Assembly: GCA_000934665.2 (NCBI GenBank) | Contig: KZ537959.1 | Span: forward strand, 186,001 to 233,881 | Origin: Catajapyx aquilonaris | Lineage: Eukaryota | Direction: 5' to 3' | Length of the DNA: 47,881 nt | Shown: piece after piece, positions 1 to 35,155 of the stretch | How positions within the stretch are numbered: position 1 is the first letter of the stretch | How the letters are laid out: each line of letters begins with the position of its first letter | Position numbers and translations under genes: made by a program | Notes under the pieces: generated by a model | What the model saw: the letters and a program-made list of their open reading frames with translations, nothing else | Databases searched by the model: none | What the model was told of the DNA's origin: nothing

Positions 1-1339
1 AAAAAAAAATGTCGCGCCAACACATTGTACCTGATCTGGCAAGTTGTTGGATGTGTGTGTATGTGTGTTGCGTATGCTGGCTATGGATGGGTTGAACAAC
101 ACGGGAGAGCGAGAGGGAGCTGCAGAGCAGTCGATAAAAGGTGGTGTCGGGAGAAATGTGTTGACTGGGAAACTCTCAAGTGGGACTTGATGTACTTGAG
201 AGCAGCTCCATGATGAATAGTCGAGCACAACTTTTGGATGGATTTGCATCGGAAGGCTCACACCATCCGACCTTGCTTTTATTTCCTCCCAACTTTGGGC
301 CTGGGTGGTGATTTGGCGTAAGAAGCGGTGTGCGCCGCTATCAGAGGAGCGCCTTCTGCTGCTGGGCCTGTTTTCACCTGGGAGAAGTGATAGGAAATAG
401 GAGCGGAAGGAGCAGAAGGAAGGAGGGGAAATGCGATTAGCCGGCGCTGAAAGGCCTTTTCTACCTCTCTCACTCTCACTCGCTCTTCATTTTGGCTGCG
501 AGTTTGTTTTTCCGACCCAGAAAGGGGCAAAGTTGCGTGCCTGATCAGATGGGGAGAGGATTGATCGATTGGGGAGGGCCGTGCGTGTGTATGTTCTGCA
601 TACACGCCTCGTACAATAGCGTCCAACTGCAACCGGTTGGTTCTTTGTGTGGGTGAATGTAGTGCAGGCCTACGGGCTCATTGATCCTTTGCCCTCTCCG
701 ACACGTCACCTGAGTTGTGTTCAATGGGAGGTGCGCACTGGTCCTGCGCACCTGCAGGATAGCCCCCCTACCCATCCTCCTCCTCCTCCTTCCCCCACCT
801 TATTCCCGCCACAATCCTCATTAACAGTGCGCCGCAGCGCCAAACTCGACGCCAGCAAAAGGTTTTCTCAGCGCCGGACTCTACACATTGCATTTGCGGC
901 ACATTCCTGCAAAGATGCAGCTGAAAAGGAATGTGATTGATACCGCACTGGCCGACGGCTGCCACTTGTTTCACGCACAATTGATTTCCGTCTAAGCATT
1001 GCCCGAGCAATTACACACAACTAGGCAGTCCGCCGGGAAGGAGATGGTGGGTGGTGGGCATATAGGATTGGTCCAGATGCAGGGGAAAGGAGAGCTGCCG
1101 ATATCGATTTAGTCATTTGGAATTCGCCAATCATCATCTGCAGTCTGGAGTTTTGGGGCTTGCGGCTGTATGAAGACGAGAGAGCTTAGCTATATACAAG
1201 TTCTTTCCGGCACAACTTTCTCTTCCCCCAACTTGTGTATTGACGAGTCTTGCGCTTGAAGACGGGGTGGTAGCGGCAGGGGGGCTGCTTCCTATACCTG
1301 GCCGCTAGCGAGCAAGCAGCTCTGGATGGATGGAAGCTG

Positions 1340-1357
1340 CGTGGGAACCTGTGGGAA
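1340..1357 (+). promoter_or_regulatory. Tandem Su(H)/CSL sites (CGTGGGAA, TGTGGGAA)
   Basis: Two YGTGGGAA matches 10 bp apart. Further matches at 5122-5129, 7212-7219 and 9457-9464. Confidence 0.4.
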
Positions 1358-4300
1358 CTTAACACTCTTACCACCTGATAAACCTAGCGCTACAAAACTC
1401 TTCTTCTCTCGCTAGATTTACTGCCGTTATTCTGAAAACTCATCCGGATTTTAGCCTCTGACATGGAGTGTGTATGCGACTGTACAGTGCATGTGGGTTG
1501 ACACTGGGCCTTCGTGCACGTAAGTCACCTCTTTCTGTTGCTGCGGAGTAATTCTGTTCGGAAATTTGCATAGTACTGTGAGATCCTGGATAACTCGAGA
1601 AACACCACCTTTGATGTAGTCTGCAAATGAGGTGGTAAGAAGGCTTGATCAGTGCCTTGCAGACTAAATGGATCGTTTAGAGTGAGTGATGTGAGGGAAA
1701 AGTCCACAAATAAGGGCTCATTACTGCCAGGGCAGTGGTTAGAAGAATACGCAATCTGTTTATCGGTTATTGGATAACCAATTTGTGCCAAAGTTTTTCT
1801 TCATAACTGCACGAAATATTTAAAAAGGCACGGCCCTGTTCTTTTATGCATCGGTTTTAATAAAACGATGAATGCACAGTTATTAGCCTGACATGACCTG
1901 TCGTCATACTGTCATAGACTACTAAGATTACAAGCTGACCTGCAACGCTCGATAAACGAGAAAAATTGGCACAGTTCCACGGGAAACCCACGCTTGAGTA
2001 GTTAACCTGTACTCTTTTTCTCTGACTCCTAAGTGGTCTTAATGGGATCCTTTTAACTTTTGAATAGTTCTTCTTGAATCAATAACTTTTCCCGGATAGC
2101 GAGACTTTCTGCCGGCTGGCGAACCCCATGAGTGTTTTATATTTCCTATCGAACTGTTACTAATTGAGGATCACTTGTGACCGTTCGAGTGTAAGCGGTG
2201 CAGCAGGAACCGGCTGAATTAATAAACGGATTCAGGGCAAGCACCGCCGAGAGAAGGCGGCCGGACTAGCTAGTTCCGGCCGTGGTTGGCTGCAAAGCCC
2301 GTACTTTTAAAGCGGTGGAAGCAGTGGAAATGCGCTTGCAGGAAATCCCGCCAGATGACAAAGGATTCCCGGAGCCGCCTATTAGGCAATTGTCCAGAAA
2401 CAGCTAACGATTACCGCCTCCCCCAAATATATTGCCATACTTGTTCTTGGTTCCCGAAAGCGGTAAAACTCGGGGGGGCCCAGATAGTTGGAAGGATCCT
2501 TTCATCCGGGCCCGCTTTCTGCTCCGCCGCCGCTAATATCCCCCCCAGCATATATAGAGAGAGAGTATGAATTCAGTGTCATTCCGCAGAACTAGGCTTG
2601 TGCTGCTGCTGCCTGTAGGAGCCTCCTTCTTTAGTGGCAGTGATTGAGAAAGAAGGGAGTTTGAGCGCAGTTCCGGCGGAGACTGGCGGCAGGAAGCCAC
2701 TATTGGAGAAGACGGATGGTGGACAAATATGATCCAAGCATGCCCTTGCTGATGCGGCTGGGAAATGACTTTGCTAGCTGCAGGGGAATATAAAGAGTAA
2801 AGGGGGAGGGGGAGGGGGAGGGAAGAAAGCGTGGCTCTAATTTTTTAGGGGCTTATCTAGAGGGCGAATGGAATGTTGGTAGGGCTCGATAAGAGGCTGA
2901 ATGGATGCCTAGGGGAATGAATGAATCGTCAGGAGGCAGCATCGCGTCGCGCCGCATGGCATCACCTGACAAAGTCGGCATCCATCCGGCCTCCACCTTC
3001 TTATATAGAGCAAGCAGGCTCAGTTATATACCTTTCCGTCCACCCTATCTGCACCGCTCCATTCGTCCCCGGCCTTGATTCGTGCGACACATCTGAATGA
3101 CTCGACGCTCCTTCCTGCCCACTTTCGCTGGCCATTCGTCACCCGGCTTCTTCGGCCCGGGTAATGCCTACAAACGAGATGGAACAGGCCCGGACGGCTG
3201 GGGTCACGACCTCTTCCTGCCACTTGGATGCGGGGTCAGGTCGAATATTTCTTGTTAAAACATATAGCTAAACTGGTGGACCCGGCTGGGGGCAGAAACT
3301 CCCAGGTGGACTGGCGGCATGTGAGTGTGTTTGGATAATGGGCGCGACGGGTGTTTTGTATAGCTGGGAAAATCAGAGTCCGAGCCCGCATGGCTAGCGT
3401 CCATTTTGATAATTGAGGGCCGGGGACTGGGAACGACCGGATTGTTAGCGCCCGCTGCCTGTTGTGCACGATGCCGCCGTTGCAACCTTACCACTGTGTG
3501 TATGCGCCAGTGCGCTTTGCCGCTGTAACCACCGCCGCCCCTGCTGCTGGACCATCTCCAAACAATAGTTTAAGTAGATGTCACGGGGCTGCATCCAGCC
3601 AGATAAAAGAGTCATGGCCGGAACGTGCACTTCAGTGCCGACTTTATTCATGTACTTGCATGCGATGCAGGGGCTTATGGGCGGTACGTGGCGGGCCTAG
3701 TCCGACTCTTCACTGCAGACGCCGCGTTCTCCTGCCTCTCTATTTAGGCAAAAATGGCCATCCTCTTTAGGATTCCACAGCGATGTGCGTGAGTCCCTCC
3801 TCGAAAAACACATGCCCCTCATTCAAAATATACGAGCTAAGCTACATACAGTACCGGCTGAATAATGCAGCGCCAAGGAAACGAGCTGCCACTTTCAATG
3901 CGTCACGGCCAATTTGAAGGCGTCTTTTGCCCCGCAATCCGTCATAATTTTTGCTGGCACAGTCGGCGTCTCTGATTCGAGTTCCAGTAACTTGCGGAAC
4001 GAGTATGGCGAGAAACAAGGTAAAAACCTGGAGGCGGCGAGTAAGCGCTGATTTGTAAAGGTGGGGGAGATGATGAGACACCAAAGCGGCTCCAATTTTG
4101 TAGCGGGGATTTTCTCCGGGCCAAGTTTGCGTGGGAGGATTGGGAGGAGAGGATGGGTAGGGAGGGAGGGAGTAATTAGCATGGGAAGAGGGTAGCGAGC
4201 ATGGATTTCAGGTCGGGCCAGGTGGTGGTGGGCCAAGCAAGCAAGCACTCTGTCTTGTTCCGGGCCAAAAAGTAAATCCAGGCTCCCAAGTCAAGCAGCC

Positions 4301-5559
4301 ATTGCAGATTCAGCGCGTGGCTCTTGATGGCCTCCGGTATCCATACAAGGGACTCTCATTTCCGCTCGCCACTACACCCAGCCGGGTCAAGTGGGCCTCG
4401 CCGGGTTGGGAGAGAGGGGACGTGGATAGGTGATGGAGCTGGGAATACACATGGTCTGCAGCGCACGTATCTGGTCATGTGTGAAGTGTGTATGATGAAT
4501 GGCTCGGAGTTGCAGTTGGGAAACCTGGGCCATGCCGCCATCTGTTCGAGGACTGGGGCAGCATCATAGGGGACAGTATGGTGGAGCCTCTGCCGACGGA
4601 CCAGGGGAATCAGGAGGATACGAGACTGGGAGCGAGCGCCATCTGCCGGGTTCCGCATCAGTTAAAGAGTTTGACCCTGCTTGGCTGCCTCCGCAAGTGG
4701 CATTCCTTGTCATCTCCGGTACATGTATCTGCCCACGACATGTTTTACGTGCGATTTATTTACACCCAGTTTCTGCCACTGCGTTGCCCGTTTTTTAAGC
4801 GCTTCTACTTTCCTGCCTGACTCACGCTGCCTTCTTTAATTACTTGACTCACCACTTGGCTAGGACACTGGATGGGAGGGAGGGTTTGGGGAGAAGGGGA
4901 GGAGCTGTCATCAATATTGTTGGAACTCTGGCTTAACGCGCGATATTGGCCGCTTGTAACATTTTAAGAATTGGCTGCGGCAGAGGTTTTGTACGGAGGT
5001 GGCATCGTGTCCGGGACTTGGCAGCAGATGGATTCACTTCCGGCCGACACCAAAAATAAGCGGACCCTGGTCTATTTTGACTCCCGCGCTTGGAGACGAG
5101 ACGATCCCCAGAGGAGGAAGCTGTGGGAAGGAGGGAGTCTTTTTCACACCATTGCATTGCACAGGCAGGCTAAAGCGAGGAAAAAAGCACGAGATGATGG
5201 AATCTGAATGAAACGACGGGTTCGCTGACACTGCCAACGCTTTATTGCGGGAGATGGTACATGAATTGCGCAAAAGAATGTCGGTTGGGTAGCAATATGA
5301 GTGGCAGTCAGTCATCCTTCGGAGAAAGAGCTAGAGGAAGGAAGCAGCTGCTGTCTGGAACAGAATCACACGTGTTTCCACCCCCCACTGACCTCCCCCA
5401 CCACCAAGCAACCCCACCCACCCAAACCACCATCCCCAGCACCAGACCCAAACAGGCAGCCTCCCTCCTGTCTGTCTAAGGAAGTCCCACCCTTCCTTCC
5501 AGACTCAATCAACCATTGGTATCACATTGTTGCAAGGGGACGATGCTATGCTGGTCTAT

Positions 5560-5637
5560 CCCGCGAGTACTCCATACTTCTTTACATTCCATAAGTCGTA
5601 CACAATATGGCACGTAAGGAAGCATGGCGCTCTCGAC
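5560..5637 (-). ncRNA. mir-1: pre-miR-1 hairpin; mature miR-1-3p 5591->5570, star arm 5627->5606
   Basis: + strand 5570-5591 CTCCATACTTCTTTACATTCCA is the exact reverse complement of arthropod miR-1 (UGGAAUGUAAAGAAGUAUGGAG). The 5p arm CCAUGCUUCCUUACGUGCCAUA pairs with it across a 14-nt loop containing UGUG. A CNNC motif (CAGC) starts 17 nt downstream of the 3p end. Confidence 0.98.
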
Positions 5638-5688
5638 AGGGTTCGTCCCCGGTCCAGGTAGCCACTCCTGCCGGCGAAACTAACTTAC

Positions 5689-6005
5689 CTGCCGCCGAAG
5701 AGGAGGTGGGCATCCGTGGACCGAAGACCAGGATGGATGCTGCAGACGGTCCTTCTCTTGAGGAAGATCCGAGGGAAAAGAAGGGAAAAGAGAGGGGAAG
5801 GCTGGAGGAGGGCTGTTGGCTGGCTGGTTGGGGGCGGCTGAGGCCACAAAAAGCGGGTGGGTCTTACTACTGCCTCTCTGGTCTGCTTCTGCTGGCTTGG
5901 CAGCAGCCAGGCAATGTCGTCCTACTCCTCTCCGACTGCTGTGTTGTTGAGCTGCTTCCTCCTCCGGCCGCGTCCGCCCACCTTCTGGGATCAGTCTGCA
6001 GGGAG
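5689..6005 (-). ncRNA. Putative exon of the antisense pri-miR-1 host transcript
   Basis: Consensus donor CAG|GTAAGT on - at 5689/5688, about 60 nt upstream of the hairpin. Candidate acceptors CCCCTCCATTTTTAG| (exon start 6005) or CTCCCTGCAG| (start 5995). No protein homology recognised. Confidence 0.45.
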
Positions 6006-8454
6006 CTAAAAATGGAGGGGCAGACACCGGAGACGGCACACGGGCAAACACGCACACATATACGTGTGGGGGGTGGGGGGGCTGGAAGGAAGAGGGATGC
6101 TGTTCGTGCTCCTCTCTGCTCTTCTTTGCATCCTATTGGTCCGCCAAATTTGTCCCGTCCCGAAATATCTACACCCCCTTCCATCCCCCCTACACGTATA
6201 CTGTACACACACCACGAGCGAGTCGTGTGCAGGACCCCCCACCCACCCCCTTACGCTTGAGTTTGGCGGAAATGCAACGTTCAGGATGGGCATGTGCGCT
6301 GGCTATAGCAAGGATTCAATGGCTGGCGAAAATTTTGACAATATTTTACACCGAGGGTATTGTTGAGGTCGCAGGTACATGTGTTGCTGGCGACACTCCA
6401 AATGGATTCCCTTCCTATGCCGGCCATGAAGACTCATCGTGTCATACAGTAGTGAACCTGGTGTTTCCCACTGCCATGCCAGTCGCGCCTGGGCTCCATA
6501 GGATGCACGGAATAATGAATGTCGTTGCGTGTAACTTGCGTCATTGTCCGTTATGACGCGATTGCCTCATCTAATGGACTCAGGAAGAAGTCGGACCTCC
6601 GTTCATTGGTCTAGGGGCCCCGGTCATATGGCTGGGTGACGTCGGACGCCCCCACCCAACACACGCCGAATGATAAGGGCAAGGATGGCGAAATCTTAGA
6701 ATTCAAGTCCTACTCAACCGCAGACATATTTGAATCCTCCCATTTGGAGTGTTCGCGAGCCTCTTTAGGACTGCCGCAAAAAACGAGAGAAATACTACCC
6801 CTGTCGGTATCCTCTTACGTCGTGTGAGACACCAACTGGATGGGGAAAGGGTGGGGAGAGGAAGATGGGGGGACATGGCTGCTGGAAAATGTAGTAACAA
6901 CGTTGACGTCACGAATGAACTCGTTTTCGTTAAGGTTTTTCATGTTTATCGTGGATCACGCCTTTTGGTTGTGCCTATACCAGAAGGTTAAAACCCTTTA
7001 TCCGTTTTCGGGGGGAATAATTAGGATTTACTTTCTCGCATTGCATTGCATGGCAATCCATGTAGCAGGGTGCAAACGGTCTCAGTTCAAGGCCAAGAGT
7101 CACGTGAAGGACACTTGATGTGCACATCATTTTATAACTGTCTCCCAGATAACATTCGGATCCAGCTACAAATAATTACCGCCTCGATTATTGTAGTTGT
7201 ACAATTAGGCCTGTGGGAAAATGGCTTAATTGGAGCGGATGATATTGGCGCATATGAGCTTAAGTATAAGGACAAAGAGTCGGAGGTTATCTGGGCCCTG
7301 CCGCAGTGTGCAACATCCCCATCATCCACCGAATGTGTGTGTGTCGAACAACTAAGAGATTCAATCGGGAAGTGATTTTAATTCTGGAAAGTTGTCCCTG
7401 ACACGTTTATAGGCCCGCCTATTTGTTGAGCCTACACCACACTGCACAACCTAATTGAACTGGGGACACATGCATTGGTTAACAGTGCAGGTGCAAGTGA
7501 AGAGCGCCCCCGCCACAATGCAATGGCGACAAGATTAGTGCTATGTTCAGGAAGGTTAGGGACTGGCATTGTTGGTCGGGGGTTGCAGACAAGGAAAAAG
7601 GCAGGCAGGCAGGCAGGCAAGCAGCCAGCCAGGCCTAGACCTCAATTGAATTAGTGGCAGGGAGGTTAGGGGGGTGGGGGGTATGGAGGTGGTGGGGAAC
7701 ATGTAATATATACGGAGATGGGTGCAAGGCCAGAAGGGGCTAACTATATGGTGTCATTGAAGAGCTGGGTCCCACGCGCGTCCGAATGAATGTACACTCT
7801 TGCCGTACCCATTCTTGGAGGAGGAGGAGGCGGAGGAGGAGGAGGAGGACCACTGTCGTCGACACGTGCTCACTCTCACAATAACACTGGCACCAAACAC
7901 TTTCGGATGATGCTCCCTCCTCGACTGCTCTTCCTTCCTTGGTGCGTTTGGTCGCTGGCTGTTGCAGTGTAGCGGCAAAGGGGCCGCCACGGGTCAAGTG
8001 GCTGCTGCCTGGGAGGGTGGGAGAGCATCAGGGGGTCTGGGGGGTAGGAGGAGGAGGATGGGGGGGTACCAGAGTGGGGGCGGGGAGTGCTCCCATATTG
8101 GAGGCCAACGCATGGAGCAGTCCGACATCGCGATACTTTTCACTCCGACTGGATTTTATTCGAGAAAATGGCCGGTATTTGCTCAGCCGGATTCCATTCA
8201 TATGTGAGAGGTCAAGGGGCTGGGAGGGGTCAGGGCTAGTGACCCCGCTGTTGATGCTGGCCCGGGTCCAGCCGCACACAAATCTGCTATAGCCCGGCAC
8301 AAGCCCCATTCATTGTTGAAACGTGAGTCAGGCCCGGCTTATTTCGGCAGATCGGGTCACCGGACACCGACGCATGCAACGTGCTCTATAAACTGCTGGA
8401 TAAGTAAAAGGAGATGGGTTAGGGTGGTTGGGTTGGGTGGGGGTGGGGGGAATA

Positions 8455-8464
8455 TTAAAAATAA
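8455..8464. promoter_or_regulatory. MEF2 consensus site TTAAAAATAA
   Basis: Matches YTA(W)4TAR in an otherwise GC-rich region about 2.8 kb upstream of mir-1 on its own strand. Confidence 0.35.
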
Positions 8465-10467
8465 ATGGGAGCGTGTGTGTGTGAGAGAGAGAGGAGGGGG
8501 ATGGCGCTTGTCCTTTTTCGGTCCTGGCAATAAGAGTCGTGCTTGGAGCCGCCAGGAGAGAAATAGCTGAGCCCACTTGGGAGGAGCCAGCAGGCTGCTG
8601 CTTGCAGGAAGAGAAGAGGAAGGAAAGAAGAAGAAGAAGACGGCGAAAGAGAAGGGGCTGGTGGTTGGTTGCGTGTGATATTGCAAGGGACCGAAATAGG
8701 AGGAATGCCTGCCTGCCTGCCTGCCTGCTTGCTGCTTCCAGGGGGGACATTTTTGGCAGCCTCCACTTCACACTACCAACTATGCCACTTCCCCCCTGCT
8801 GGTGTGCAGCCTCCTTGGAGACAACTCCCCCGCCGCTGCTGCCGCCACCCCCTACTTTGGTCCAGAAAAAGACGCGCTATGAATCCGGCCTCGTCGGAGG
8901 AGCAAGCTTTACGCGATTGCATCTACAGTTCTGCACTTTCTTGGCACATCTCACTCTGCCACGGACGTTTGCGTAATGGGTTTTCGCACGTGTCAAAGTA
9001 CCGGGGCTAAAATTCTTGGCCGATGGGATTGTTCTCGTGGCGAAACTCTGACAAGATTCTAAAATTACATCCTGGCTGACTGCGGGTTTTTTAAAATGCC
9101 GATAATTTTGCCCTTCCTGGTTTTTATGTGACTAGTCGATTGGGTAACAGTTCACTTGCGGATAACTGGGAGGTCATGTGATTAAGTGCAATTTTGATAG
9201 CGTGTATCGGGGTACAGATTTGGCCGGGGTACAGATCGGGCGAGTAAGGTGCGCCGCATATGTAACTTTCAGCAGCAACAAATAATGCGACATTTAATGC
9301 GGGCTGGCTAATTACTTAATGGATGATCCTGTTGCTACTGGCAGTAAAAACGTTAATGCGAGAGGGTTTTTTAATGGAATACTTCATTTTGTAATTCGAT
9401 TAGACAGCGTGGATTGTAACTTATGGAACCCCCTGTACATGTACGAAAATTGCAACCGTGGGAAACTTTACAGCGATGGACACATTTTTGCTATTTCTGG
9501 GAGTGCCTAGCGACACTTATAATTCAAGGGCGAACTCGTATGGGCAGTAGGTACACGAAGTCGTTCACTTGCGTATGAAACAGTTTTTAGTGAGATTTGA
9601 CTGGTAGCTATGAGTGTATCCAGGCACGACTTATTTGTGAGTGGGGGGGGGGGGGGGGGGGGTGCCCAAACTTTCCGAGAACTTGTGTGTTCTCTTGGTA
9701 CGTGACTTGGACTTGGTATGTGGACCACCTGAGCACAACCTGAGATGATGATACTATAGTTAATAAAATATTTCGAGTGATTTGGTATTGAAATGGGCTT
9801 AGCATTCCTGCCCTGTTCATCCTGCCACTATGATATTTGTTTCATTTTCCTCCTTCCCATAATTCTCCCGAATTAGCTTTTCACTTCTGGCATGTATAAG
9901 AAAGAAGATTGTGAGTCGGTATTGCCTCATGTAATATCATTACAGTAAGCAGAACCTAGAAGCAGTGTTAGATGCCCAGGTTTTAAAAAACTTCTCCGTA
10001 TCATATATTTCCAAATCTGGGGTTGTAACTGTATGTGTGATATTGATGCACCACAGAAAATAATATCAGAGATATGCCGTGCACTGAAACCATTACAATG
10101 AGAATTTCTAAATATAATTTTTTACAGGCTATAGCACACGTTACTCTGATCAGTTCTAGAAATGCTTTCTTGTCTGAAATGCTCGAAATAAAGTCTAAAA
10201 TATTAGTGATGCTGTGTCAGTTTGTCAGTTGGCTGGTGATGGCTGCAGCTGTACCCTCATTGCAGAGGGAATCTGAGAAATGGGTGGATTGGGCTGCCTA
10301 GCCTCTAGGATGGAGCATCCCACTTTTTTCTTCTTCTTTTAGGCTAGCAGGTGTTCCCAGATTACCACATCTTTTCAGAATAAACTGGGCCAAGAACTGG
10401 GGATTTTTGTGGGGTGTGAGGGAATAAATGCCTTTCACCAGTGTGATGATTTCTATTCAAGTAAGGG

Positions 10468-10788
10468 GGGGAGGGGCGCTGCGGTAACGTATACGCCCAC
10501 GGATGGAAGGGTCCCAGGTTCGATCCCAGCCCGGGGTCTCCCCCCTTCATCTCGTGCAGAGTTGGGTCGTCTCTGGCTTCGTCTTGGGTGGAATCTCCAA
10601 CAGACTAATTCACCTGGGGAGTTCACAAAATGTACCATTTGAGACATTGCACTGCACATTGCACATCCACTCCCACTCACCCTGCCCGTGTGGCCCAGGT
10701 TCCAGATATGTACTGTATAGTACTACTCAGTATAATAAAGGTCCATGGTGCATTACCACTACCCTGATTATTATTATTGTTGTTGTTG
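10468..10788 (+). mobile_element. tRNA-derived SINE in mib1 intron
   Basis: B-box GGTTCGATCCC at 10518-10528 and (ATT)n(GTT)n tail. Flanking TSD TTCAAGTAAGGG (10456-10467) / TTCAAGGAAGGG (10789-10800). Confidence 0.75.
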
Positions 10789-10921
10789 TTCAAGGAAGGG
10801 AATTAATCAGTTTTTTGGGATCAGTGAGAGGATATTTTAGTAATGAAAGTAGTTGTGATAAATCATTGGTTTTTATGTGCGTGTAGTATATTTATGCAAG
10901 TATTTTATATTCTACCTCTAG

Positions 10922-13820
10922 TGCGATGCGCATCTTGCTGTCAAAGCTTCCCCGTCCATGGCTGGTGGATGAGAAGAAGGATGATGGTTACACGGCCTTA
11001 CACCTTGCCTGCCTCAACAATCATGTGGAGGTGGCTGAATTGCTGGTCCACCAGGGGCGAGCTTCCATGGACCTACAGAATGTGAACCTGCAGACAGCCC
11101 TGCACCTGGCTGTGGAAAGGCAGCACACCCAGGTGGTCCGTTTGTTGGTTAGAGAGGGGGCTAATCTAAATGTTCCGGACAAAGATGGAGACACACCGTT
11201 GCATGAGGCCCTCAGGCACCACACCCTCAGCCAGCTCCGGCAGCTGCAGGACATGCAGGATGTAGGAAAGAACTACAACGGCTTGCTAATGGGACTCGGG
11301 GGACACGGAGCTGACAAGAAATCATCTGCTTCCATTGCTTGCTTCCTGGCTGCCAATGGTGCTGACCTGGCTCTCAAGAACAAGAAGGGTCAGACACCAC
11401 TTGATCTGTGCCCAGATCCAAACCTGTGCAAAACTCTGGACAAGTGCCACAAAGAGAGAACTACGTAAGTGCCCCAACAAATTCCTGAATATCTGTTATC
11501 TTGAAACAATGCTGTCAACATTTATAATTATGGCTCTATTCTAATTAGTTAGTTATTTTGTGCAGATCAGAAGTTGTGTCATCACTCAAGTTTTCTTGCT
11601 AATGATTAAGACATTTTACTTGACTTCCTTTGATTACTTTGCATTTGGTTGTATTCATCCTGAGAAATACATAATACAGAGACCATTGGTTGTACTCTAC
11701 TAACATTGTGTATTGCATTTTCAAGGTCTGGTGCAGATGCAATGGTTCGATCCAGTTCTGGTGGTGCTGGAGGAGAGCCTGAGTCTCTTGAGGAGTGCCT
11801 AGTGTGCTCAGATCAAAAGAGGGACACCTTGTTCGGACCCTGTGGACACATAGCCTCATGCTACTCATGCTCTGCCAGAGTCAAGAAATGCCTCATCTGC
11901 AGGAACAATGTCCTCAACCGAACCAAAGTATGTGTTCTTGGAGGTTAACCTCAATTTTATGGGAATTGCATATCTTGTTGTAGTGGTCTTAAAGAAAAGG
12001 TTCCTATGCATGAAGCAAACATTCAAGTTTTTCCTGTCCTGATCAGTAGGAGAGCAAATTAAAATACAGTAAAACTTCTATAAGTCGAATCTCCATGGGA
12101 CCGGAAACAAACTTCGAGTTATAGAAGATTCGAGTTATAGAAGATTCGAGTTAGGGAAGTTAGGAATTTTTTAAGCACATAACTCTATAAGGAAGCCTAC
12201 CTTCATATCCAGCAACGAAAGGTGTTCATAACTTAATAATATCTGTCACTATCAGTCTATCACACTTACAATGTTCCTTGTTGTTTTGGTGTAAAAAAAA
12301 ACTCAGTGAAGGACAGTGAAGCCTACTCTTAGATCCAAGGATTCAATTGTCACAATCGAGTCAAACACTTCTTTGGTACGTCTGGTAGATGGAGATCAGG
12401 AAATTGAGCCTCTCTGTGCATGTGGCCTACTCTCGAATGTTTGGCTGGGAAATTAGAAAATTTTCCGTACTCGCCAACATGAACTTCGACTTAGGGAGAC
12501 TGAAAATGCATTGATATCCCATCGTAAGGCCCTGCCAACACTTCGAGTTATAGAAATTCGAGTTAGGGAAGATCATTTCCTATTATTTTACATTGTGGCC
12601 AACCAAGCTCGTCATTTTCTTGGACTTATAGAGAACTTCGACTAGGGAAGTTCAACTTATAGAAGTTTTACTGTAGTTTTGAAGTTACTCTCTCTGTCAA
12701 GTTTTGAGCTACAAGGGGAATTGGTCCCTTGCAGATCCTATTTAAAACAGTGATTTATTTCATATCCATTTAGAGAAAAATATTTCCAAATGCAAAAAAT
12801 GCCATTGTCTTAAAGTGTAAATTATATGATACACTTAATTTTTTAGTCAAATAGCAAAAGAAGGTGTGAATACTCAATGGGCATATGATTTAACATTACT
12901 CTCTGCTGTAGCAGGACCTCTTGCAAGCGACTTTCCTGTGCCAATCACCCTAAATTGCTCTTCTGTTTAGCTTATTTCTACTCTACACTGTATTAAAGAG
13001 CCTTGAAGCATAGCCAATTTGTTATCATTGGTTAAATTCTGCAATTTACTAGATTTTCCTTCAGTTTCATGAGTGGTCATGATATACTCTACTCTGTCAT
13101 GTTTTCAGCTTGAGGAGTGTGTGGTATGTTCTGACAAGAAGGCATCAGTGATGTTCCGTCCCTGTGGTCACATCCTAGCTTGTGATGTTTGTGCTGCCCT
13201 AATGAAGAAGTGTGTTCAGTGCCGAGCCCAAATTGAGAGAACAGTGCCATTTGTTGTCTGTTGTGGAGGAGTTGGTAAGTATGCATGAGGATCACGGGTA
13301 CATGAAGCTAATACTTATAAATTGTTAACCATGATTTTCCCTGCAATTTTTGAAACACCACTCTCATAACCATTTCAGGAAAGCACAATTGTAATGTGAA
13401 TACAATTTTAAGAGACAACTGGCATGTATGTTTCACTGAGTAAAATCTCTTTCAGCTCCTCCTGAGCCATCAGTATCTGCCCAGAGCTTGCTTGTTGATA
13501 ACACTACCGGAGGTGTGGTGGGAGGAGGGGCAGCAGCAGCAGCAGCAGCAGCGGCGGCGGCAGCAGTAGGGGCCAGCAGCGGGATGGGTGCCCTGATGAA
13601 TAATGGTATTCGAGACACAACCCCATCAGAGTCTGATGTGCAGAAGCTCCAGCAGCAGCTGCAAGACATTAAGGAGCAGACCATGTGTCCAGTCTGCTTG
13701 GATCGACTCAAGAACATGATCTTCCTCTGTGGACATGGGACCTGCCAGATGTGTGGAGACAGAATGTCAGAATGCCCAATCTGCAGAAAACCAGTGGAGA
13801 AGAGAATCTTGCTGTACTAG
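10922..13820 (+). CDS. mib1: E3 ubiquitin ligase Mind bomb 1, 3' part (ankyrin repeats + three RING fingers); 5' exons lie outside the window
   Basis: Exons 10922-11464, 11726-11927, 13109-13274 and 13456-13820 are GT-AG and phase-consistent. [29 protein letters not shown] and the C-terminal [44 protein letters not shown] are characteristic of Mib1. Confidence 0.98.
12067..12673. mobile_element. Tc1/mariner-pogo-type MITE (607 bp) in mib1 intron
   Basis: TIRs CAGTAAAACTTCTATAAGTcGAA / TTCaACTTATAGAAGTTTTACTG, TA on both sides, subterminal TTCGAGTTATAGAA repeats. Confidence 0.9.
13530..13566 (+). repeat. (GCA/GCG)n encoding a poly-Ala tract in Mib1
   Basis: Trinucleotide run in the last mib1 exon, between RING2 and the coiled coil/RING3. 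Confidence 0.9.
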
Positions 13821-15169
13821 GAAAGTCTGCAAAGATGGGAGATGCTACATGTATAGTCAATGTCTAATGATATAACCACCAAGAAAGTGATTTATTGGCA
13901 GTCAGTTACTCATCAGGAGCTGCGTAGAGGTTATTGCTATTTTTCCAAGCAGATGTTGGAAGCTGATATCTTGATGATATTTTGTATGGTATTAATTACA
14001 TCATTCATGAATGTCTAAAAATTGACATGGTTTCTGTACCCAAAAAAATGGAATAGTGTGAGTAATTGCCTGGTAGTAAGTCATCTTGAAATAGCATTTT
14101 TTTGTGGGGGGATTTTTAAATTTTAATTGCTTCGAGTGTCAGTTATGTTCTGCAGAATATCTGGTTTGAAATATAATCGTAATAATGGCATGAACATATC
14201 AAGAAAGGCAGTGATGTGATAGTTGGTTAGCCAATGGGCCACAGAATGATTTTGTCTTGAAATCCCGTTCAAGTGTTTATTTTCCTTTAAGATATTTTGA
14301 AAAGTGATGTGATCACTTTTGTTAGATTGTTTCAAAGTTCCAGGGTTAATTTTTGTTGTTTGGTCGTATGTTTGTTCTTCTGTTAGTTGTTGTGTAATGT
14401 CATTCATGCCTTGATGGTCAAAGTTGTTGTAATACTTAAAAGCCAAGCTAATCCGGTCTTTTCTCACTTGTCAGTGCATGGTAACTCCTCTGTTGGTTGG
14501 TAAACTCCTCTACCACTGAATGCTTAGCTAACCCATACAAATCCTATATGCATGTTGTGTGATATGCAGCAAGTGTGGCCAACCACTTGGCTCCAGCAAA
14601 TCTGGAAATCAGCTGGAATCTAGATCTTCTCACCTTTATTGCATGATCTGTTCTACCCAAATGTTCAAGCCTGAAACCTGGGGTTAGCATGCTAATGTTA
14701 CGAATTATTTATATATTTATGTAGTAAAAAACTAATGGTTTGAATTCATGTCATTTCCATCATGTTTAATTTGCTTCCAGTATGATCTGTAACAATATGT
14801 ACAATATGAATAGAATTAAATGTTAGTAATAATAATGGAACAAAGCATTTTATTTGTAGGACAGTAGAAAAACCCTCGCTTCGCTCACATTTTTATATGG
14901 GCAGGCCAAGAAAACCACTAGCTTCGCTCACTTTTTTCTAGGCCTGTGGCCTGTGGTGTAGGCCATGTTCTTAATGATGGTCATCCAACAATTATCCGCA
15001 TCATATGCCCCTCCCCCCTGCCCTCCCTCCTGCCTGCCTCCCCCCTCCTTACACTAACCCTTTGACAGCTAAGTACATCACAATTATTATGATGTCCTGA
15101 GGGTTTTTGAATTTGGCATGCGAGGATGTGCATTGAGAAGGCGAACATTGCGGTGCAAACTGCATAACC

Positions 15170-15300
15170 ACACCCTGACATTTTCCACGAGATTCTGTAC
15201 CTGCTGCAGAAACTTTCCAGCCACCCATTTGAAACACTAAATTTTGCCACAACATGTTTTTGGGCTATTCATTTTGCCTGATCTATTGGACCATCGGCTG
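15170..15300 (-). pseudogene. Decayed pogo/Tigger transposase fragment (CENP-B-type HTH)
   Basis: Translation FSVSNGWLESFCSRYRI resembles the FxASxGWLxxFxxRxxI motif. Flanking frames contain stops. Confidence 0.6.
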
Positions 15301-15825
15301 GGACACAGACAATACGTTGAACCTGTATCAACCCTTTCCTCTTCCCTGACATTTTAAAACTGGACTGAAACTTGGAAAACCTAAAGGCTCCAAATACCAA
15401 AAGGTTTTCACATAAGATGTTGGTTCACCAAAGCTTAAGTTTGTATGTAGGCCTACATTAGGTGGTGTAATTTGAGGTGTTTGCAAATTTGTAAGACAGT
15501 CTGGGTATCAGCATGGCATAATATGTTAGAGCCTTCTTATTTAACTAGGCTTTCATCAGTATTTTATACAATGACACACCATTTCAGAAATGACTTGTTG
15601 AATGCCTTTCTCTGAATGCATGATTTTATACATTTTGTGTACAAAACACCTTTCCGGCTTTCTGTGCCACTTCATGTAAGAATATGTTTGCAGCCAACGA
15701 CATTCTAATATGACCATACAAAAGTTCTGCAAAACGGAATTATTAAAACTGGAGACACCAACAAAGCTTACTTTAATAGTGACCTTGGTTGTTTTTTTTA
15801 ATACCGACAAATCGGCATTCACACA

Positions 15826-17436
15826 TCACAATTGCACATGATTGTCTAAGTGGCGCATTGCCTCATGTATGGTATACACTCCATGAGAAATAGCTGGGAA
15901 TGTTTTTTTCACTTTGGGTTTACAACAAGCCACCACATCCCTGAAGAACCGTATGTAGGCCACTCTGTATGCCTTAAGCCTGTAGAAAAATAATGAGATA
16001 TATTAAAGGAATATTGTCTCACCCTTCATAATAATAATAATTGCGTACAACAGAGCTGAATGTTCCACACCTGACAATGTAAATTATGAAATTGCTGGGG
16101 AAGTAGATGAAGGTGAGGAAGTTGACGTAGATGTACGGCTCTGTCCATGGGCTAACAGTGGTAAAGAGGTAGATGGAGATGTTGGGGGCCAAGGAGAGGA
16201 TGTATATGACAGCCAGAACCAGCAAGAGAGCATTCATCCTCCTTTCTCTCTCTCGTAGCTGCTGCATGATGGTAGGGCTCACATCCCTTCAAGTGAGAGT
16301 AAACTGCTAGCGTTTCAACTTAAGTGCTAGCTTTTTGTTGTAGTACATACTTGAATGTGCATATTTGAGACCAGTTTTGATGAAGCTTCACTCCAATGAA
16401 TGCTAGTGATGCGACAGTGAGGACCAAGGGAAGGGTGGCAGAGGCTCCGTATAGCTTGTTGGTGACAGGTGTGTCCACCAAAGTTGTCAAGCAATTCCCA
16501 CTGGCACGACTGTACCCAAAGCCACCTTCTATCTGTTTCAACAATGCATAAGCAAGTAAACAAAAAAGGTCTTGCTTTACAACAGATACCATCAAACATT
16601 TTTATAATACTCGTACACTAGCCATGCCAGGCACATATTATAACCAGTATAATATTAACTTGTTAAGTTGGACATGATGACTCCTAGAGGTAGAAGATGA
16701 TGCTACTCACAATGACTGCCACGGGAAAGCATAGTGGGTATATCCAGATAGCTGTCAATGCTGGAATTCCCTTACCGCTGTGGAATATAGTATTTGAAGC
16801 CTTGGGGCACCAGAGTGTCAGCGCCCTAAAATGACACAGTAGGCCTACCGTATTGCATAGCATATTTTTTTAAAAAAGGGCGATCTAGAACAGAACTGGT
16901 CTGATTCAAGAGCTTACCTGTAAAAAGTAGTGATGGCCAGCAGGAATCGAGAAGCAATCCCAAAGAAATGCATGCAGAAACCAATGACCCTGCAGCCCAG
17001 TTGTCCGAGAGGCCACCTCCTCATCAGCATATTGATGCCTCCGAAGGTCATCGCCGTGGCGCAGAAAATGCAATCGGCCAAGCTCAGGTGCAGCAAGAGC
17101 AACGTGGTATACGTCTTGACGGAACTGGAATAAGGACAAATCCGGTCAGGTGGGGAGCGAAGCGAAGTACATCAGGTATATCCTGTACCTGACAATGGGA
17201 CCATATATAGCCTACCTGAAGGGATCCCTGCATCGTCGACGGGCGTACGGCAGTGCAATCAGCGTGATGGCGTTTCCGACTGTCCCGATTATCCCAGTGA
17301 GTAGCCAGTAGAGGCCTGAGACCAAGGTGAAGGAGTAGGGCAGGTCTGGGAAGCAGCACGAGGGAGCTCCTGGCTGAAGACAAGCTTCAGAACTGTGCCT
17401 GTCGTCCCTGGTGCAAATGGTGCTGTTGTTCATCAT
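15826..17436 (-). CDS. Rhodopsin-family GPCR, Tre1/Moody-like, divergent (~364 aa)
   Basis: Exons 17436-17216, 17124-16918, 16825-16711, 16532-16351, 16286-16071 and 15979-15826 join in frame. Motifs: TM1 GTVGNAIT, TM2 HLSLADCIFC, WPLGQLGC, ECL2 FGY...C, TM7 NFIIY, helix 8 YRVAY. The start codon is uncertain. Confidence 0.85.
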
Positions 17437-18646
17437 GTCCTCGTCCTGGTTGAATGACGGTGCTTCATTTGCGGAACTCACTATTTCCCTCCTTTACATT
17501 GGCATGTCAGGGTGTCACTCATCATCACTTGTTTCACTCACCATGGGGCGAATTGTTTGGGTGGGTCCTAGAAATTGTTAGCACACTACCTGTGCATCAA
17601 TAACTTCATTAGCGGCATATTGGTGGGAGGTCATCACACCGAGAACAGGAGACAGTGTCAGGTGTGTTCTCTATTATTGGCAGTTCCTTTTCACTATTTC
17701 TCAATCTGACATAACGCCCAATGCTTTCCACCTGAATAATGTCATTTTTAGACGGCTATACATTTAGTTTTTGGTGTGATTTAATATTTGACTCAAATTA
17801 AAGACTATACGTACTTCAGAAAAATGCACTACAAAAAAAATCATAGGCAACAAATAATATTCTATATATTTATTGCACATTATCTCTATTAACCTTTTGT
17901 ACGGTACGTTTTGCGTTACATTTTATGTTATTATCATTGTTGACAAACACGCATATGCCAAGTCATTCTAATTCATTTAGTAATTTGGTTTGAACAAAAG
18001 ATGCTCTCACTACCTGGATGAATGAACCTTGGAGTGACCTTACCAGATTGATCCCGCCAAGTGTTGTAAAAGATAATGTTCGAAAGTGACAGCAGACGAG
18101 GAAGTCATGTTCCTCGTGTGCCTTGTGACGCAAACTGATTCTGAATACTCTTTTCCTTCTCATACGATGTGGTGGTAATAAGTCGAGTCACAGTGTCTAT
18201 ATGCACAACGCCGCAACTAATAAAGGGCAGGTGCATCTGGTCTCCCGGGTGTCTGATATTGTATGATAATAAACGAATGATTAACCGACACCTTTTCTCC
18301 TTCGAAGGTTACGTTGAGCGGAGTCATTACATACAGGACAACTCGAATATTGTAGCTAAAGTGTCAGTTGCCTGACAATTTCCTACCCAGATGACAAAAT
18401 GTTGAGTGGCAGGTTGTTCATTGGCACCAATAATTCTCATTTCATACACGCACATGTCAATGCCACATTATTCTGTTCCCTGTAGCACTGTAATCATTTA
18501 AGTATACAGTTGCAATGGCATCCCCCTATAATAATAGCCTTATTTTTTCGCCTCCGGAACGCTCCAGAATAAGCAAGGTCCCCTACATGGTGCCTCCCCA
18601 AAGGATGGAGGAGGCACCCATGTAGGGGACCCTGTCCAGAAGAAGA

Positions 18647-19887: not shown

Positions 19888-21292
19888 ATGTCGGCGCCCA
19901 CACTCCTACGATTCAGTGAGTTCGTTCGTTCCCTCGAAAAAAACAAAACCAACAATACGTACCTCACATGTCACAACGTTTTCAGGTGCAGGCTCTCATC
20001 TGATGCGTGCAGCACTATCGCTCACTCGCCAACCCAGATCCTATCTGTGCACCTCTACATCTCCATCCAATACACCAACTGAGTCTTCGATTAAGGAGAA
20101 ACTGAAGTCCAGTTTTCCTTCTGCCACTGCCATAAATGTGGAAGACATTTCTGGAGGGTGTGGGGCCATGTTTGAGGTGATGGTGGAGGACTCACATTTT
20201 AAGGGAATGAACACTCTCAAACAGCACCAGACAGTCACACAGGTATATTATACTGCACTGGATCTGTAACGTTCATGGAAGTTTTGAGTCCTTTTTATTA
20301 GATGCTTGTCAATAATATTGGTATCAAGATGGCAGAGAACAATCCAACATGTGCAAACCACCTCCATAATTATGTAACTCATAATGAAATGGCCAGTACG
20401 CAGGTCTTATTTAAAGCTGTTGTATCCTAGTCTTTTCATTTATACATTTAAAAACAATTTTCCACTCATACAAGTAGCCATTGGCATCCTCTCTAAGTAT
20501 TAGTCACTTTTAATTGTAGATTCAAATAGGCAAAGAAAGAGGCATTATAAACCCTATGGACACACGAATGGACATTTATCTCAGAAATTTACATGCCTGA
20601 TGGCAGCTCCCATCATGACCAATAATGCAGGTTTCCTATACTGATTGTCCCAATTCCTACTATCCAATAGCTTACTTTACTCTGGAATAAGTGGCCATTG
20701 CATCTTACTTGAACCTACTAGCTGTAACCAGTGCCGGATTTATAGGGGGGTGCAGGGTGAGAGCGCCCTGGGCCCCAAAAAGTTTAAAATATTATATTAG
20801 ATTATTAAAAATTAAAAATTAACTACTTGTGACGATACTGACGAACCTCCAGGTCCAGGCTTAAATGCTTAATTGTAAGCAATTCCTCATCGGAAAAGGG
20901 AGTCAAAGTAGTGTCGTGTCGGGAGCACTATCCACTTTCCCATGGCAGTGAATTATCCTTAGTATGAAATGGGCCCCCACCCGAAATTTATCTGCCTATG
21001 CGTCTGCCTTATTGCTGTATATTTTAATTTCTACATGAGGGAGGGGGGGGGGGGGGNGGCTAACCAGAGATCGGCCTGGGCCTCCCAAGGTCTAAATCCG
21101 GCCCTGTCTGTAACTACGTATTTATAATTTTAAATCCTTCAAACAGTTTAGCCTAGTACGACTCAGCAGTTCTTGAATCAGTAGGGATTAATTCTTTCAT
21201 TCTGGTTTGAACAGGCACTGAAGGAGCACATTCCATCCATGCATGGGATCAGGATAAACACGCAAGTCCCACCTGACAAGAAGAAGCGATGA
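19888..21292 (+). CDS. BOLA3: BolA-like protein 3, mitochondrial Fe-S factor (~120 aa)
   Basis: Exons 19888-19915, 19986-20242 and 21215-21292. Has VEDISGGCGAMFEV, KQHQTV..ALKEHIPSMHGIRI and an Arg/Ser/Leu-rich N-terminus resembling a presequence. ATTAAA at ~21338. Confidence 0.93.
20729..21106. mobile_element. hAT-type non-autonomous element (378 bp) in BOLA3 intron 2
   Basis: TIRs CAGTGCCGGATTTA / TAAATCCGGCCCTG (13/14 match) and 8-bp TSD GCTGTAAC / TCTGTAAC. Confidence 0.88.
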
Positions 21293-23527: not shown

Positions 23528-23828
23528 ACCGAAGCAGCAGTGGTGTAGTGGTATGATGTCCGACTGCTAATCGGGAGGTCCTGGGTTCGAATCCCCGAGG
23601 CCAGCGACCCTGATCATGGTTTTCTGTGGTTTCCCATGGTCATCGCAGGATAATTCCAGGGTCGTTACCGTAATTATAGGCCACAGCCGCTACCTTCCTT
23701 ACCTATCCTTGCCTCAATTCCGATGAAAAGTATAGTAAAAATGGAAAGAGTTCCAGACAAAAAAATTGGGAGAAATCCCCCCCTAATAAAGCCTAAAGGG
23801 CTGATAATGGGGTATCAATTATTATTAT
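23528..23828 (+). mobile_element. Full-length tRNA-derived SINE
   Basis: A-box TGGTGTAGTGG, B-box GGTTCGAATCC, body GGTTTTCTGTGGTTTCCC...GGCCACAGCCGC and (ATT)n tail. Perfect 16-bp TSD TAGATCAGTGAGGGGG at 23512-23527 and 23829-23844. Confidence 0.92.
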
Positions 23829-33505: not shown

Positions 33506-34942
33506 CTTACTTCCCAGAGATACCTCTCGGTGAACAATGCGTACACTTGATGCGTTCTGAAAACAAAATGTTCGGGCAATATTGAAGCCTAGTTTTAAAA
33601 ATGGCTAAAAAGTAGCAATGCAACATATGAGGTCAGGTATTCCCCACCCTACCAATTCACAATATGCTCAAATATTGTGCCAATTTCCAGCCATTTTTTA
33701 AAGGGGAGGAGGGACACTCAGACATCAATATCATTTCTCAATACAGTCTAACTGTGTTATGTAGGGAGGATTTCCTGATTAAATTGTCCCCAGCACATCA
33801 TGAATTCAAGAGAAACCTTTCATCCTCTCTTTCTGGTGACACTTCCCCGGCATTTAGATCAGTAGTTCTCAAAATTCAAATCGTTCGTCAAATAGCTCAC
33901 ATGTAAACGCACCTTTACTCTTTAGGCCTATCGACGTTCTAAGAATCAGACGATTTAAAAATATATATATATTTCTGAGACATCCTGTGGATGAATTTTT
34001 TCTGAATTTTACATTCAAAAGGACCACCACGAATGAAAATGACTAATTTTGACGCAAAGTTGTTATTCATTAATATCACGAATTTTGGGCAAAAAAGAAT
34101 GAAACGGCCCATAAACCTGCCACAAACTCCGCCGTCAAAGTGTTAAACATGTTTCCCCTTAGAACCAAAGGGAATAAGCTCAAAATTAATACTTCGGCAG
34201 CATATATTCCAGCATTTGAATTAGGGCTCATGATATACAACAAACAACAACAACACTAAAGGAGGACTTGAAACAACCCCAAGCCTCTTCTAAGGACTTA
34301 ACTGTCTTGTTCCCTTCTACCAATTTATCAGAAACTAACTGTTGATATTCCAGACCTAATGCAGGAAGTTGCTCAACCTTAATCCTCTCAACCACCTCAG
34401 GTCTTTTCTTAAACATCCTCCACCCCACCACCTAACCATGATATACGGTCTTATAATATACGGTAGATACCCACCGTTTTAAGTTAACTCCACCCACCAC
34501 CTAAACCAAATCCGGGTATTTTAGAGAAGAAAATAGAGAAATGTTGCTTTGCTCTTATATGAAATAATTGTGTCCCATTGTCATCGTGAATTCCCTATTT
34601 GTCTGGAGTAGTAATGAATGTTAATAGGAATTATGCTACATATTTTTTCACGTTTATCATATTGGGAAAAGCGAACAGCAAAAGCAAAGGAGAAAGAGCA
34701 GAATGGCCTATCTAGGATGAAATTTCCAAAGTGACCTACATTGAAAAAATAATCTTGTTGATGTCAGGTCCCAATGTTAACATAGACGGCAGTGGGTGCC
34801 TATGAGTAACACGAAATAATTGTCGCAGAAATCATGCCTCATTCTATCTTTATGTAGATCTCACCTCTTCGTGTAGCTCTTAAACCAAGGGGGTAACCAC
34901 TCGACTGAAAAGTGTACACTGGAGTACCAAATTCAAGGAGTA

Positions 34943-35155
34943 CAGTCGATTAAAGGAGTATGTTACCAGACCCCTAACCTAGAAATTAGCCTCCAACAGA
35001 GGTGCTGCCTAGGGGAGTGAGATTTATTGTATCAGGGGGAAGCAGCACCTCTGTTCTTCCCCCTGATACAATAAATCTCACTCCCCTAGGCAGCACCTCT
35101 GTTGGAGGCTAATTTCTAGGTTAGGGGTCTGGTAACATACTCCTTTAGCCGACTG
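34943..35155. mobile_element. Fold-back (fully palindromic) Tc1/mariner-type MITE, 213 bp
   Basis: TA|CAGTCG...CGACTG|TA termini, perfect 92-bp arms (34951-35042 / 35056-35147) and a 13-nt spacer. Confidence 0.9.

Follow-up and report, generated by a model that had tools for sequence, protein, structure and literature searches.

In the window, by which is meant the whole stretch of 47,881 nt of DNA analysed here, the muscle microRNA gene mir-1 very probably lies antisense within a long (>10.9 kb) intron of mind bomb 1 (mib1, an E3 ligase gene of the Notch pathway) that interrupts the Ser610 codon in phase 2, an inherited arrangement that has been retained in this genome. The arrangement is real and is already known, having been described in print for insects, echinoderms and vertebrates, and the remark in the original prediction that it is not new in principle was correct. 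The window contributes a further lineage, arthropod-like and not among the sampled insects, to a pairing reported from insects to mammals. The locus is also useful for genome annotation, where it is easy to overlook mir-1 and how far mib1 really extends, and could possibly seed a survey of why the miR-1/mib1 pairing persists, while opening no new question.

The microRNA gene is represented by the following features:

5563..5636, minus strand: mir-1 precursor hairpin, from a match to Rfam RF00103 and the fold
5570..5591, minus strand: predicted mature miR-1 (3′ arm, 22 nt), from the sequence, the Rfam consensus alignment and an identical 22-mer in locus L009
5606..5627, minus strand: predicted 5′ arm (star strand), which is base-paired to the 3′ arm in the fold of minimum energy; exact ends deduced

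The covariance-model match to RF00103 spans the full model (1–79) on the minus strand with 62.0 bits (E 9e-11), above the curated gathering score of 45.6, and the plus-strand reading of the same hairpin reaches 48.8 bits, below the score of the minus strand. The minus-strand fold is one long stem of −40.3 kcal/mol (z −4.6), with none of 200 shuffles as stable, and the miR-1 hairpin that had been proposed for this strand is thus borne out by both the model score and the stability of the stem. Its 3′ arm, read directly from 5591 down to 5570 and located at exactly the coordinates originally proposed, is TGGAATGTAAAGAAGTATGGAG and agrees with the capitalised conserved consensus of RF00103. On sequence grounds, the hairpin is identified as the conserved muscle microRNA gene mir-1, antisense to mib1, with the 22-mer as its predicted product. 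That no miRNA is made from it, as in a defunct copy or a hairpin arisen by chance, is scarcely credible, given the 62 bits against the mir-1 model with the whole stem intact, the recurrence of the identical 22-mer in L009 (a genome with no other intronic similarity), the DNA depth of ∼25 over 1–9000, which corresponds to single copy, and the X5 contigs that cover the locus.

The X5 contigs (kind ‘?’) are taken as RNA-derived only because of three GT..AG joints of mib1, described below, and they carry no strand information. Within the intron they cover two stretches:

5371..5976, no strand assigned: stretch under two X5 contigs (5371–5547 and 5551–5976), hairpin included, from X5 contig mapping
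7048..7304, no strand assigned: further X5 contig within the intron, from X5 contig mapping

The contigs at 5371–5976 may represent either pri-miR-1 or unspliced mib1 RNA. An ORF at 7025–7375, located at the contig at 7048–7304, gave no match to a Pfam family.

Downstream of the hairpin, on the opposite strand, the C-terminal part of mib1 is encoded by four exons:

10922..11464, plus strand: mib1 ankyrin-repeat exon, from tblastn and the X5 joint 11464>11726 (GT..AG); followed by a GTAAGT donor
11726..11927, plus strand: mib1 exon with the first C-terminal RING finger, from the X5 joints 11464>11726 and 11927>13109 and tblastn
13109..13273, plus strand: mib1 exon with the second RING finger, from the X5 joints 11927>13109 and 13273>13455 and tblastn; its end is perhaps one base further right, the joint 13273>13455 being marked ‘cut +1’
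13455..14678, plus strand: last mib1 exon, with the third RING finger, the stop (13818–13820) and the 3′ UTR, from an X5 contig that covers 13455–14678

The ankyrin exon begins at 10922, directly after an acceptor AG at 10920–10921, and its start reads AG|T (Ser) followed by A-M-R-I-L-L, so that the exon opens on the third base of the Ser codon; this is the phase-2 start within the Ser of (GNP)S-AMR that had been described in the original prediction. The exon continues for 181 residues and shares 79–90% identity with full-length MIB1 from many animals (best E 1e-118). The three downstream introns are confirmed by GT..AG joints in a single 1638-nt X5 contig, and splicing the four exons together yields an open frame of 424 residues that ends in a stop. 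Ankyrin repeats followed by three RING fingers at the C-terminus, as found with tblastn and the X5 joints, identify the gene as a MIB1 orthologue. The N-terminal MIB/HERC2 and ZZ domains of such a protein would be encoded outside the window. In a tree, the C-terminal part of the window’s Mib1 is sister to nine insects with support of 95/97, which places it outside the nine sampled insects, in a non-insect arthropod-like lineage.

The region upstream of the ankyrin exon is assigned to the intron that hosts mir-1:

1..10921, plus strand: 3′ portion of the mib1 intron that hosts mir-1, the 5′ end of which falls beyond the window start, from the lack of a mib1 exon, the 945-nt X5 contig and the acceptor AG at 10920–10921

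Within it, the hairpin on the minus strand precedes the plus-strand exon by 5286 nt (10922 − 5636). The earlier claim that 1–10921 contains no other mib1 exon was upheld by tblastn with 12 full-length Mib1 proteins and by a search with short probes. The first ∼600 residues of the 12 proteins gave no tblastn match outside the ankyrin exon, the sole other match of these proteins being weak and on the minus strand (2685–2548, E 0.017, 29% identity), and when the preceding exon was sought in 1–10921 with 48 distinct 45-residue probes, the best match outside the exon was again on the minus strand (2693–2737, E 0.47). No upstream mib1 exon was found between 5640 and 10921, where one would have spoken against the nesting. 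A candidate upstream exon at 6998–7060 (E 0.52) was rejected, having an in-frame stop, no GT donor and an end that reads CCA TGT, versus the C-T-A-G demanded before the exon by the X5 contig.

Of the 945-nt X5 contig, only letters 637–945 map, on 10918–11226, and its first 636 letters place nowhere in positions 1–16000 of the window; since these upstream letters of a spliced contig are absent from this region, the host intron must be longer than 10.9 kb. The mib1 exon that flanks miR-1 on the downstream side is located in the DNA itself, and the upstream side would be represented by the 636 unplaced letters. A DNA contig (X1) is unbroken over 1–7810 and extends ∼17.9 kb leftwards past the window start, which leaves room for upstream mib1 exons. 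The placement of mir-1 inside a mib1 intron is based on the X5 contig together with the assumed collinearity of the assembly, the upstream exon presumably lying to the left of the window. Were the upstream exons located elsewhere, through rearrangement or misassembly, miR-1 would adjoin mib1 and not lie inside it, as reported for a silkworm assembly in which the pair is intergenic, between MIB1 and another gene (PMC2500172), and the lack of an upstream mib1 exon in the window would agree with such an arrangement. It is nevertheless very unlikely, in that the exon at 10922 is internal, with an acceptor, and the X5 contig continues for 636 letters upstream of it; in a collinear gene the upstream exons would lie left of the window, hence placing 5563–5636 in the intron, and the X1 contig is continuous over 1–7810 and 17.9 kb further left.

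The position of the intron that carries mir-1 is ancient and widely common to animals, as judged from the sequences of 72 metagenome loci. In each of the 56 genomic loci that were informative, the acceptor AG falls at the same base as in the window; 56 is not a count of species, because many metagenome loci are near-copies from the same hosts. The Ser that is split by the intron (GNP-S|AMR) corresponds to residue 610 of the 1006-aa mammalian MIB1. One locus of vertebrate type (L043) reads cag|T GCC ATG around this Ser codon and, like the window, has its intron there in phase 2; its 44-residue exon is found exactly, among named proteins, only in vertebrate MIB1 (120 proteins; 29 named vertebrates and 4 unnamed). 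The intron in the same Ser codon of vertebrates, which the original prediction had put forward, is therefore confirmed by L043 with regard to codon and phase, while its number stands on a count of exons: the Ser610 intron would be the vertebrate ‘intron 12’ according to isoform exon boundaries. A comparison of vertebrate MIB1 isoforms gave boundaries that could be used for this count and none at residue 610 itself, and a literature search for the human MIB1 exon 12/13 junction (c.1829, c.1830, exon numbers) returned nothing useful.

In 27 of the 56 genomic loci the whole intron is present, measures 57–1339 nt and lacks miR-1, so that these animals either lost the nesting or never had it. Because the short miR-1-free intron is kept by many animals, the intron either predates the nesting or is the more stable of the two. 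The common base of the Ser codon in the informative loci and the short intron without miR-1 in many animals are modest points that the present analysis adds to the record.

A second instance of the nesting is provided by L009, where the exact miR-1 22-mer occurs in a minus-strand hairpin with an Rfam score of 41.9 bits (E 4.5e-6), less than the gathering score of 45.6. Here the hairpin precedes the corresponding mib1 exon by 2.1 kb; the acceptor of that exon falls at the same base, and the 7.9 kb before the exon contain no upstream mib1 exon. The likeness of L009 to the window is limited to the 22-mer and the exons, and L009 is read as a distant genome, an independent locus in which the antisense nesting is repeated.

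In print, Yu et al. (2008, PMC2500172) report an antisense miR-1/miR-133 pair in intron 12 of MIB1, the same intron in each case, for honey bee, red flour beetle (Tribolium), frog, chicken, mouse and human, the insect arrangement being cited in the pertinent passage as unpublished data, without codon-level mapping there. The insects of that report resemble the window in arthropod lineage, host gene and orientation, whereas the window would extend the record to a non-insect arthropod-like lineage. The mammalian miR-1-2/miR-133a-1 cluster is like the window in miRNA family, host gene and antisense orientation (PMC2500172), and the mouse miR-1-2 cluster has likewise been placed within Mib1 intron 12 (PMC12214129), so that the mammalian precedent invoked in the original prediction is found in both papers. 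Sea urchins have a ∼142-kb Mib1 intron that contains both miR-1 and miR-133, with RT-PCR support across the intron, and the echinoderm miR-1 is flanked by Mib1 exons of one transcript (PMC11076791); the likeness to the window consists in miR-1 lying between Mib1 exons, whereas the echinoderm intron is far larger and has miR-133 inside it. For Ciona, a literature search on miR-1, miR-133 and mind bomb gave one paper, in which mind bomb appeared only in the reference list.

A chance move of mir-1 into the long mib1 intron in this lineage, as opposed to descent from a bilaterian ancestor, would be in keeping with the loci in which the intron is present without miR-1 (27/56, counted as loci and not as species). 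Such an independent origin is highly improbable, however, as the same host gene, intron and antisense orientation are reported in insects and vertebrates, miR-1 is reported in a Mib1 intron in echinoderms (PMC2500172, PMC11076791) and the antisense nesting is seen again in L009; retention, with losses where the intron shrank, is far more probable than several separate captures by the same intron. The proposal that the host/miRNA arrangement was inherited and kept in this arthropod is thus supported by the reports in insects, echinoderms and vertebrates and by L009, and the nesting would have been inherited and then maintained in a non-insect arthropod-like genome.

Because mir-1 is antisense to its host gene, it would not be made from the mib1 pre-mRNA and a promoter of its own would be needed. 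Transcription would start from such a minus-strand promoter, to the right of 5636, and the primary transcript would be cut by Drosha and Dicer, as in established miRNA biogenesis, to the 22-nt 3′-arm product at 5591–5570. A scan of MEF2 motifs gave four matches against 3.85 expected, which is chance, and a scan of CArG motifs gave one match against 4.35 expected and was likewise counted as chance level, both patterns being consensus sequences. Two MEF2-like sites, at 8455 and 10108, were given no weight as the MEF2 count was at chance level, and a promoter/terminator scan was set aside since it employs a bacterial consensus that is inapplicable here.

It is doubtful that the nesting is held in place by function, with the host gene being dampened when pri-miR-1 is transcribed, specifically in muscle, through or against mib1. 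If this were so, miR-1 would affect Notch signalling at two points, through its action in trans on the ligand Delta and through a cis effect on the Delta-activating ligase, and the 27 loci with an intron shrunk to 57–1339 nt would have lost the cis arm. In a milder version, mib1 may be a bystander gene that is trapped in the miR-1 regulatory landscape.

The usual partner of miR-1 is miR-133. No mir-133 was detected in the whole window at the gathering score, in 1–11000 at E values up to 1, in 16 long metagenome loci (149,554 nt) at the gathering score, or in L009 at E values up to 1. Compared with the mammalian cluster, the window therefore differs in having no miR-133, which could at the nearest be >5.5 kb past miR-1 in the downstream direction of the minus strand; the partner may lie beyond the window start. 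A further difference from vertebrates concerns the ankyrin exon, which in L043 is split again after 44 residues, whereas that of the window runs on for its full 181.

The stretch at 5563-5636 on the minus strand is a full-length match to the Rfam mir-1 family (RF00103; 62.0 bits, E 9e-11; gathering score 45.6), and the same palindrome-like stretch read on the plus strand scores 48.8 bits with the mir-1 model. The minus strand folds into a single long stem of -40.3 kcal/mol (shuffle mean -25.2, z-score -4.6), and equally good folds were found in 0 of 200 shuffles. The conserved 3′ arm, TGGAATGTAAAGAAGTATGGAG, runs from 5591 down to 5570 on the minus strand, exactly where the original prediction had placed it. 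It is thus a canonical mir-1 hairpin on the strand opposite to mib1.

An open frame occupies 10887-11468 on the plus strand. The AG at 10920-10921 and the frame reading AG|T (Ser), then Ala-Met-Arg, place the exon start at 10922, the third base of the Ser codon, bearing out the proposal that the mib1 ankyrin exon begins in phase 2 within a Ser; a GTAAGT donor follows directly after 11464. The 181-residue exon translation found 2800 proteins at E 0.001 or better, of 4193 candidates, and among the 120 matches listed is 79-90% identical to full-length MIB1 proteins (best E 1e-118); MIB1 matches come from insects, molluscs, annelids, brachiopods, amphioxus, and vertebrates. The remaining C-terminal part was detected at about 11750-11930, 13097-13273, and 13587-13817 (tblastn with 12 of the MIB1 proteins). 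A 1638-nt contig assembled from sequencing run X5, which is of kind '?' and from another study than the four DNA runs, carries three GT..AG joints (11464>11726, 11927>13109, and 13273>13455). None of these three mib1 joints was found in the DNA run X1, and X5 is therefore taken to be RNA-derived. Joined, the four mib1 exons form an open frame of 424 residues with a stop at 13818-13820. In a tree with 23 named proteins, from which three rows in which the anchoring motif was not found had been dropped, this C-terminal part is sister to nine insects with a support of 95/97, the bootstrap being not fully settled and the copepod row a long branch. The arthropod placing has reasonable support, with the animal falling outside the nine insects of the tree.

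The first ∼600 residues of 12 full-length Mib1 proteins had no tblastn match in the whole window outside the ankyrin exon, where their matches are repeat cross-matches, save a weak one at 2685-2548 on the minus strand (E 0.017). A finer search, in which 112 of the 120 proteins supplied 48 different 45-residue probes with GNP at their end, likewise did not find the preceding exon in 1-10921, where the strongest match was at 2693-2737 on the minus strand (E 0.47); a distant match at 34863-34946 reached E 0.2. By either search 1-10921 contains no other mib1 exon, as had been claimed, and none lies between 5640 and 10921, a candidate there (6998-7060, E 0.52) being rejected for an in-frame stop and the lack of a donor site. 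In a 945-nt X5 contig, letters 637-945 fall on 10918-11226 and the first 636 letters occur nowhere in 1-16000, indicating that the mRNA extends upstream into exons beyond the window. The additional four-letter match at 10918-10921 is consistent with a Pro-Ser junction that reads C-T-A-G. An X1 DNA contig is unbroken over 1-7810 and extends about 17.9 kb further left. The simplest reading is a mib1 intron of >10.9 kb with mir-1 inside, antisense, and the upstream exon to the left of the window.

On general principles of miRNA biogenesis, mir-1 would be transcribed from its own minus-strand promoter, right of 5636, and the transcript processed by Drosha and then Dicer to the 3′-arm 22-mer. Since the host pre-mRNA holds the complement, mir-1 would be expressed independently of mib1. 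The promoter was not located; matches to MEF2 and CArG motifs are at chance level, and miR-133 was not found in the window. Two X5 contigs (5371-5547 and 5551-5976) lie over the hairpin, and a 257-nt X5 contig (7048-7304), which neither matches a Pfam family nor joins other pieces, stands alone in the mib1 intron 1.4 kb right of it. These three may represent pri-miR-1 or unspliced mib1 RNA, contigs telling neither strand nor level; 7048-7304 might derive from an upstream portion of pri-miR-1.

Metagenome contigs scanned with the mib1 exon provided 72 loci, which count contigs and not species, with many near-copies from the same hosts. Ten are uninformative (exon start off contig or unmatched) and six are cDNA-like, continuous through GFNALHHAALRGNPS-AMR. 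All 56 genomic loci have AG plus one base before the Ala codon, in the position and phase seen in the window. One of them, L043, has an exon of 44 residues, then a gt donor, that is exact in 33 of the 120 listed MIB1 proteins (29 named, all vertebrates, and four unnamed). As this exon is vertebrate-type and its acceptor falls at the same base, the proposed vertebrate intron in the same Ser codon holds for a vertebrate-type gene. The split Ser is residue 610 of a 1006-aa mammalian MIB1 (P0066). Vertebrate isoform gaps indicate boundaries after residues 75, 133, 177, 212, 251, 274, 334, 364, 457, and 493, and residues 494-609 are split into two exons in mollusc- or annelid-like loci, from which we infer that the Ser610 intron is the twelfth, provided that no boundary is missing or spurious. 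This count totals 21 exons, in agreement with the 21 exons of human MIB1. Locus L012 carries a compact mib1 gene (7945-11583) in which a single exon encodes residues 160-609 and the Ser610 intron has shrunk to 58 nt; this intron is kept even in a genome with most mib1 introns lost.

A search for the 22-mer, exact or with ≤2 mismatches, over the 385,467 nt of the 72 loci found it at one, L009, at 5801-5822 on the minus strand. Its hairpin scores 41.9 bits with the mir-1 model (E 4.5e-6), under the gathering score and so missed at that cut-off, and is followed 2.1 kb downstream by the same mib1 exon, which is at 7964 and has no upstream mib1 exon in the preceding 7.9 kb. Similarity between L009 and the window is confined to the 22-mer and the exons, which makes L009 an independent instance. 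A whole Ser610 intron, 57 to 1339 nt long and bounded by GT and AG, is present on 27 of the 56 genomic loci, none of which contains the miR-1 22-mer at ≤2 mismatches; at the other 29 the upstream exon is off contig and, except for L009, they are uninformative on nesting. Given the constant acceptor position and the 27 miR-1-free introns, the intron is very widely shared, while only some lineages retain the nesting.

Published reports of the mib1/miR-1 pairing include that of Yu et al. (PMC2500172). In other papers, the mouse miR-1-2 cluster is placed in Mib1 intron 12 (PMC12214129), sea urchin miR-1 within a ∼142-kb Mib1 intron by RT-PCR, a second urchin and a starfish being annotated likewise (PMC11076791), Mib1 is treated as host of miR-1-2/133a-1 in fishes (PMC4177693), and flatworm miR-133 and miR-1 are near Mind bomb genes (PMC4405270). 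The pairing across bilaterians, arthropods included, has thus already been described. The finding is real and correctly read, and adds a further genome to an ordinary arrangement that is in print. It contributes two minor points, namely that the position of the host intron is conserved to the base and that, on the evidence of the loci, many animals have the intron but not the miRNA; no paper giving a codon-level intron position was found, a weak negative given that most subscription journals lie outside the search.

Other features of the window are as follows.

Features elsewhere in the window
16019-17493, minus strand: rhodopsin-family receptor gene, several exons, just downstream of mib1 on the opposite strand
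23541-23597, plus strand: match to part of the Rfam tRNA model (positions 8-63, 29.2 bits)
25080-27088, plus strand: bromodomain (E 4e-17), then DUF3512 (E 2e-52)
43127-44788, minus strand: 553-residue ORF with weak similarity to ligand-gated ion channels (E 6e-6, below the Pfam cut-off)

Within the receptor gene, ORF 16914-17171 matches Pfam 7tm_1 (E 8e-11). ARAGORN detected no tRNA gene in the whole window, and 23541-23597 may be a tRNA-derived repeat fragment. The bromodomain and DUF3512 pairing may point to a BRD7/BRD9-type protein, and 43127-44788 may be an ionotropic receptor gene. The sequence has an N at ∼21050, giving an X in ORF 20963-21127. Summed X1 contig depth rises from about 25-30 to 11,000-60,000 at 10147-10680, shortly before the ankyrin exon, and at 11749-12816, in the intron that separates the first two RING exons; both stretches are also covered by X5 contigs and look like very high-copy repeats.
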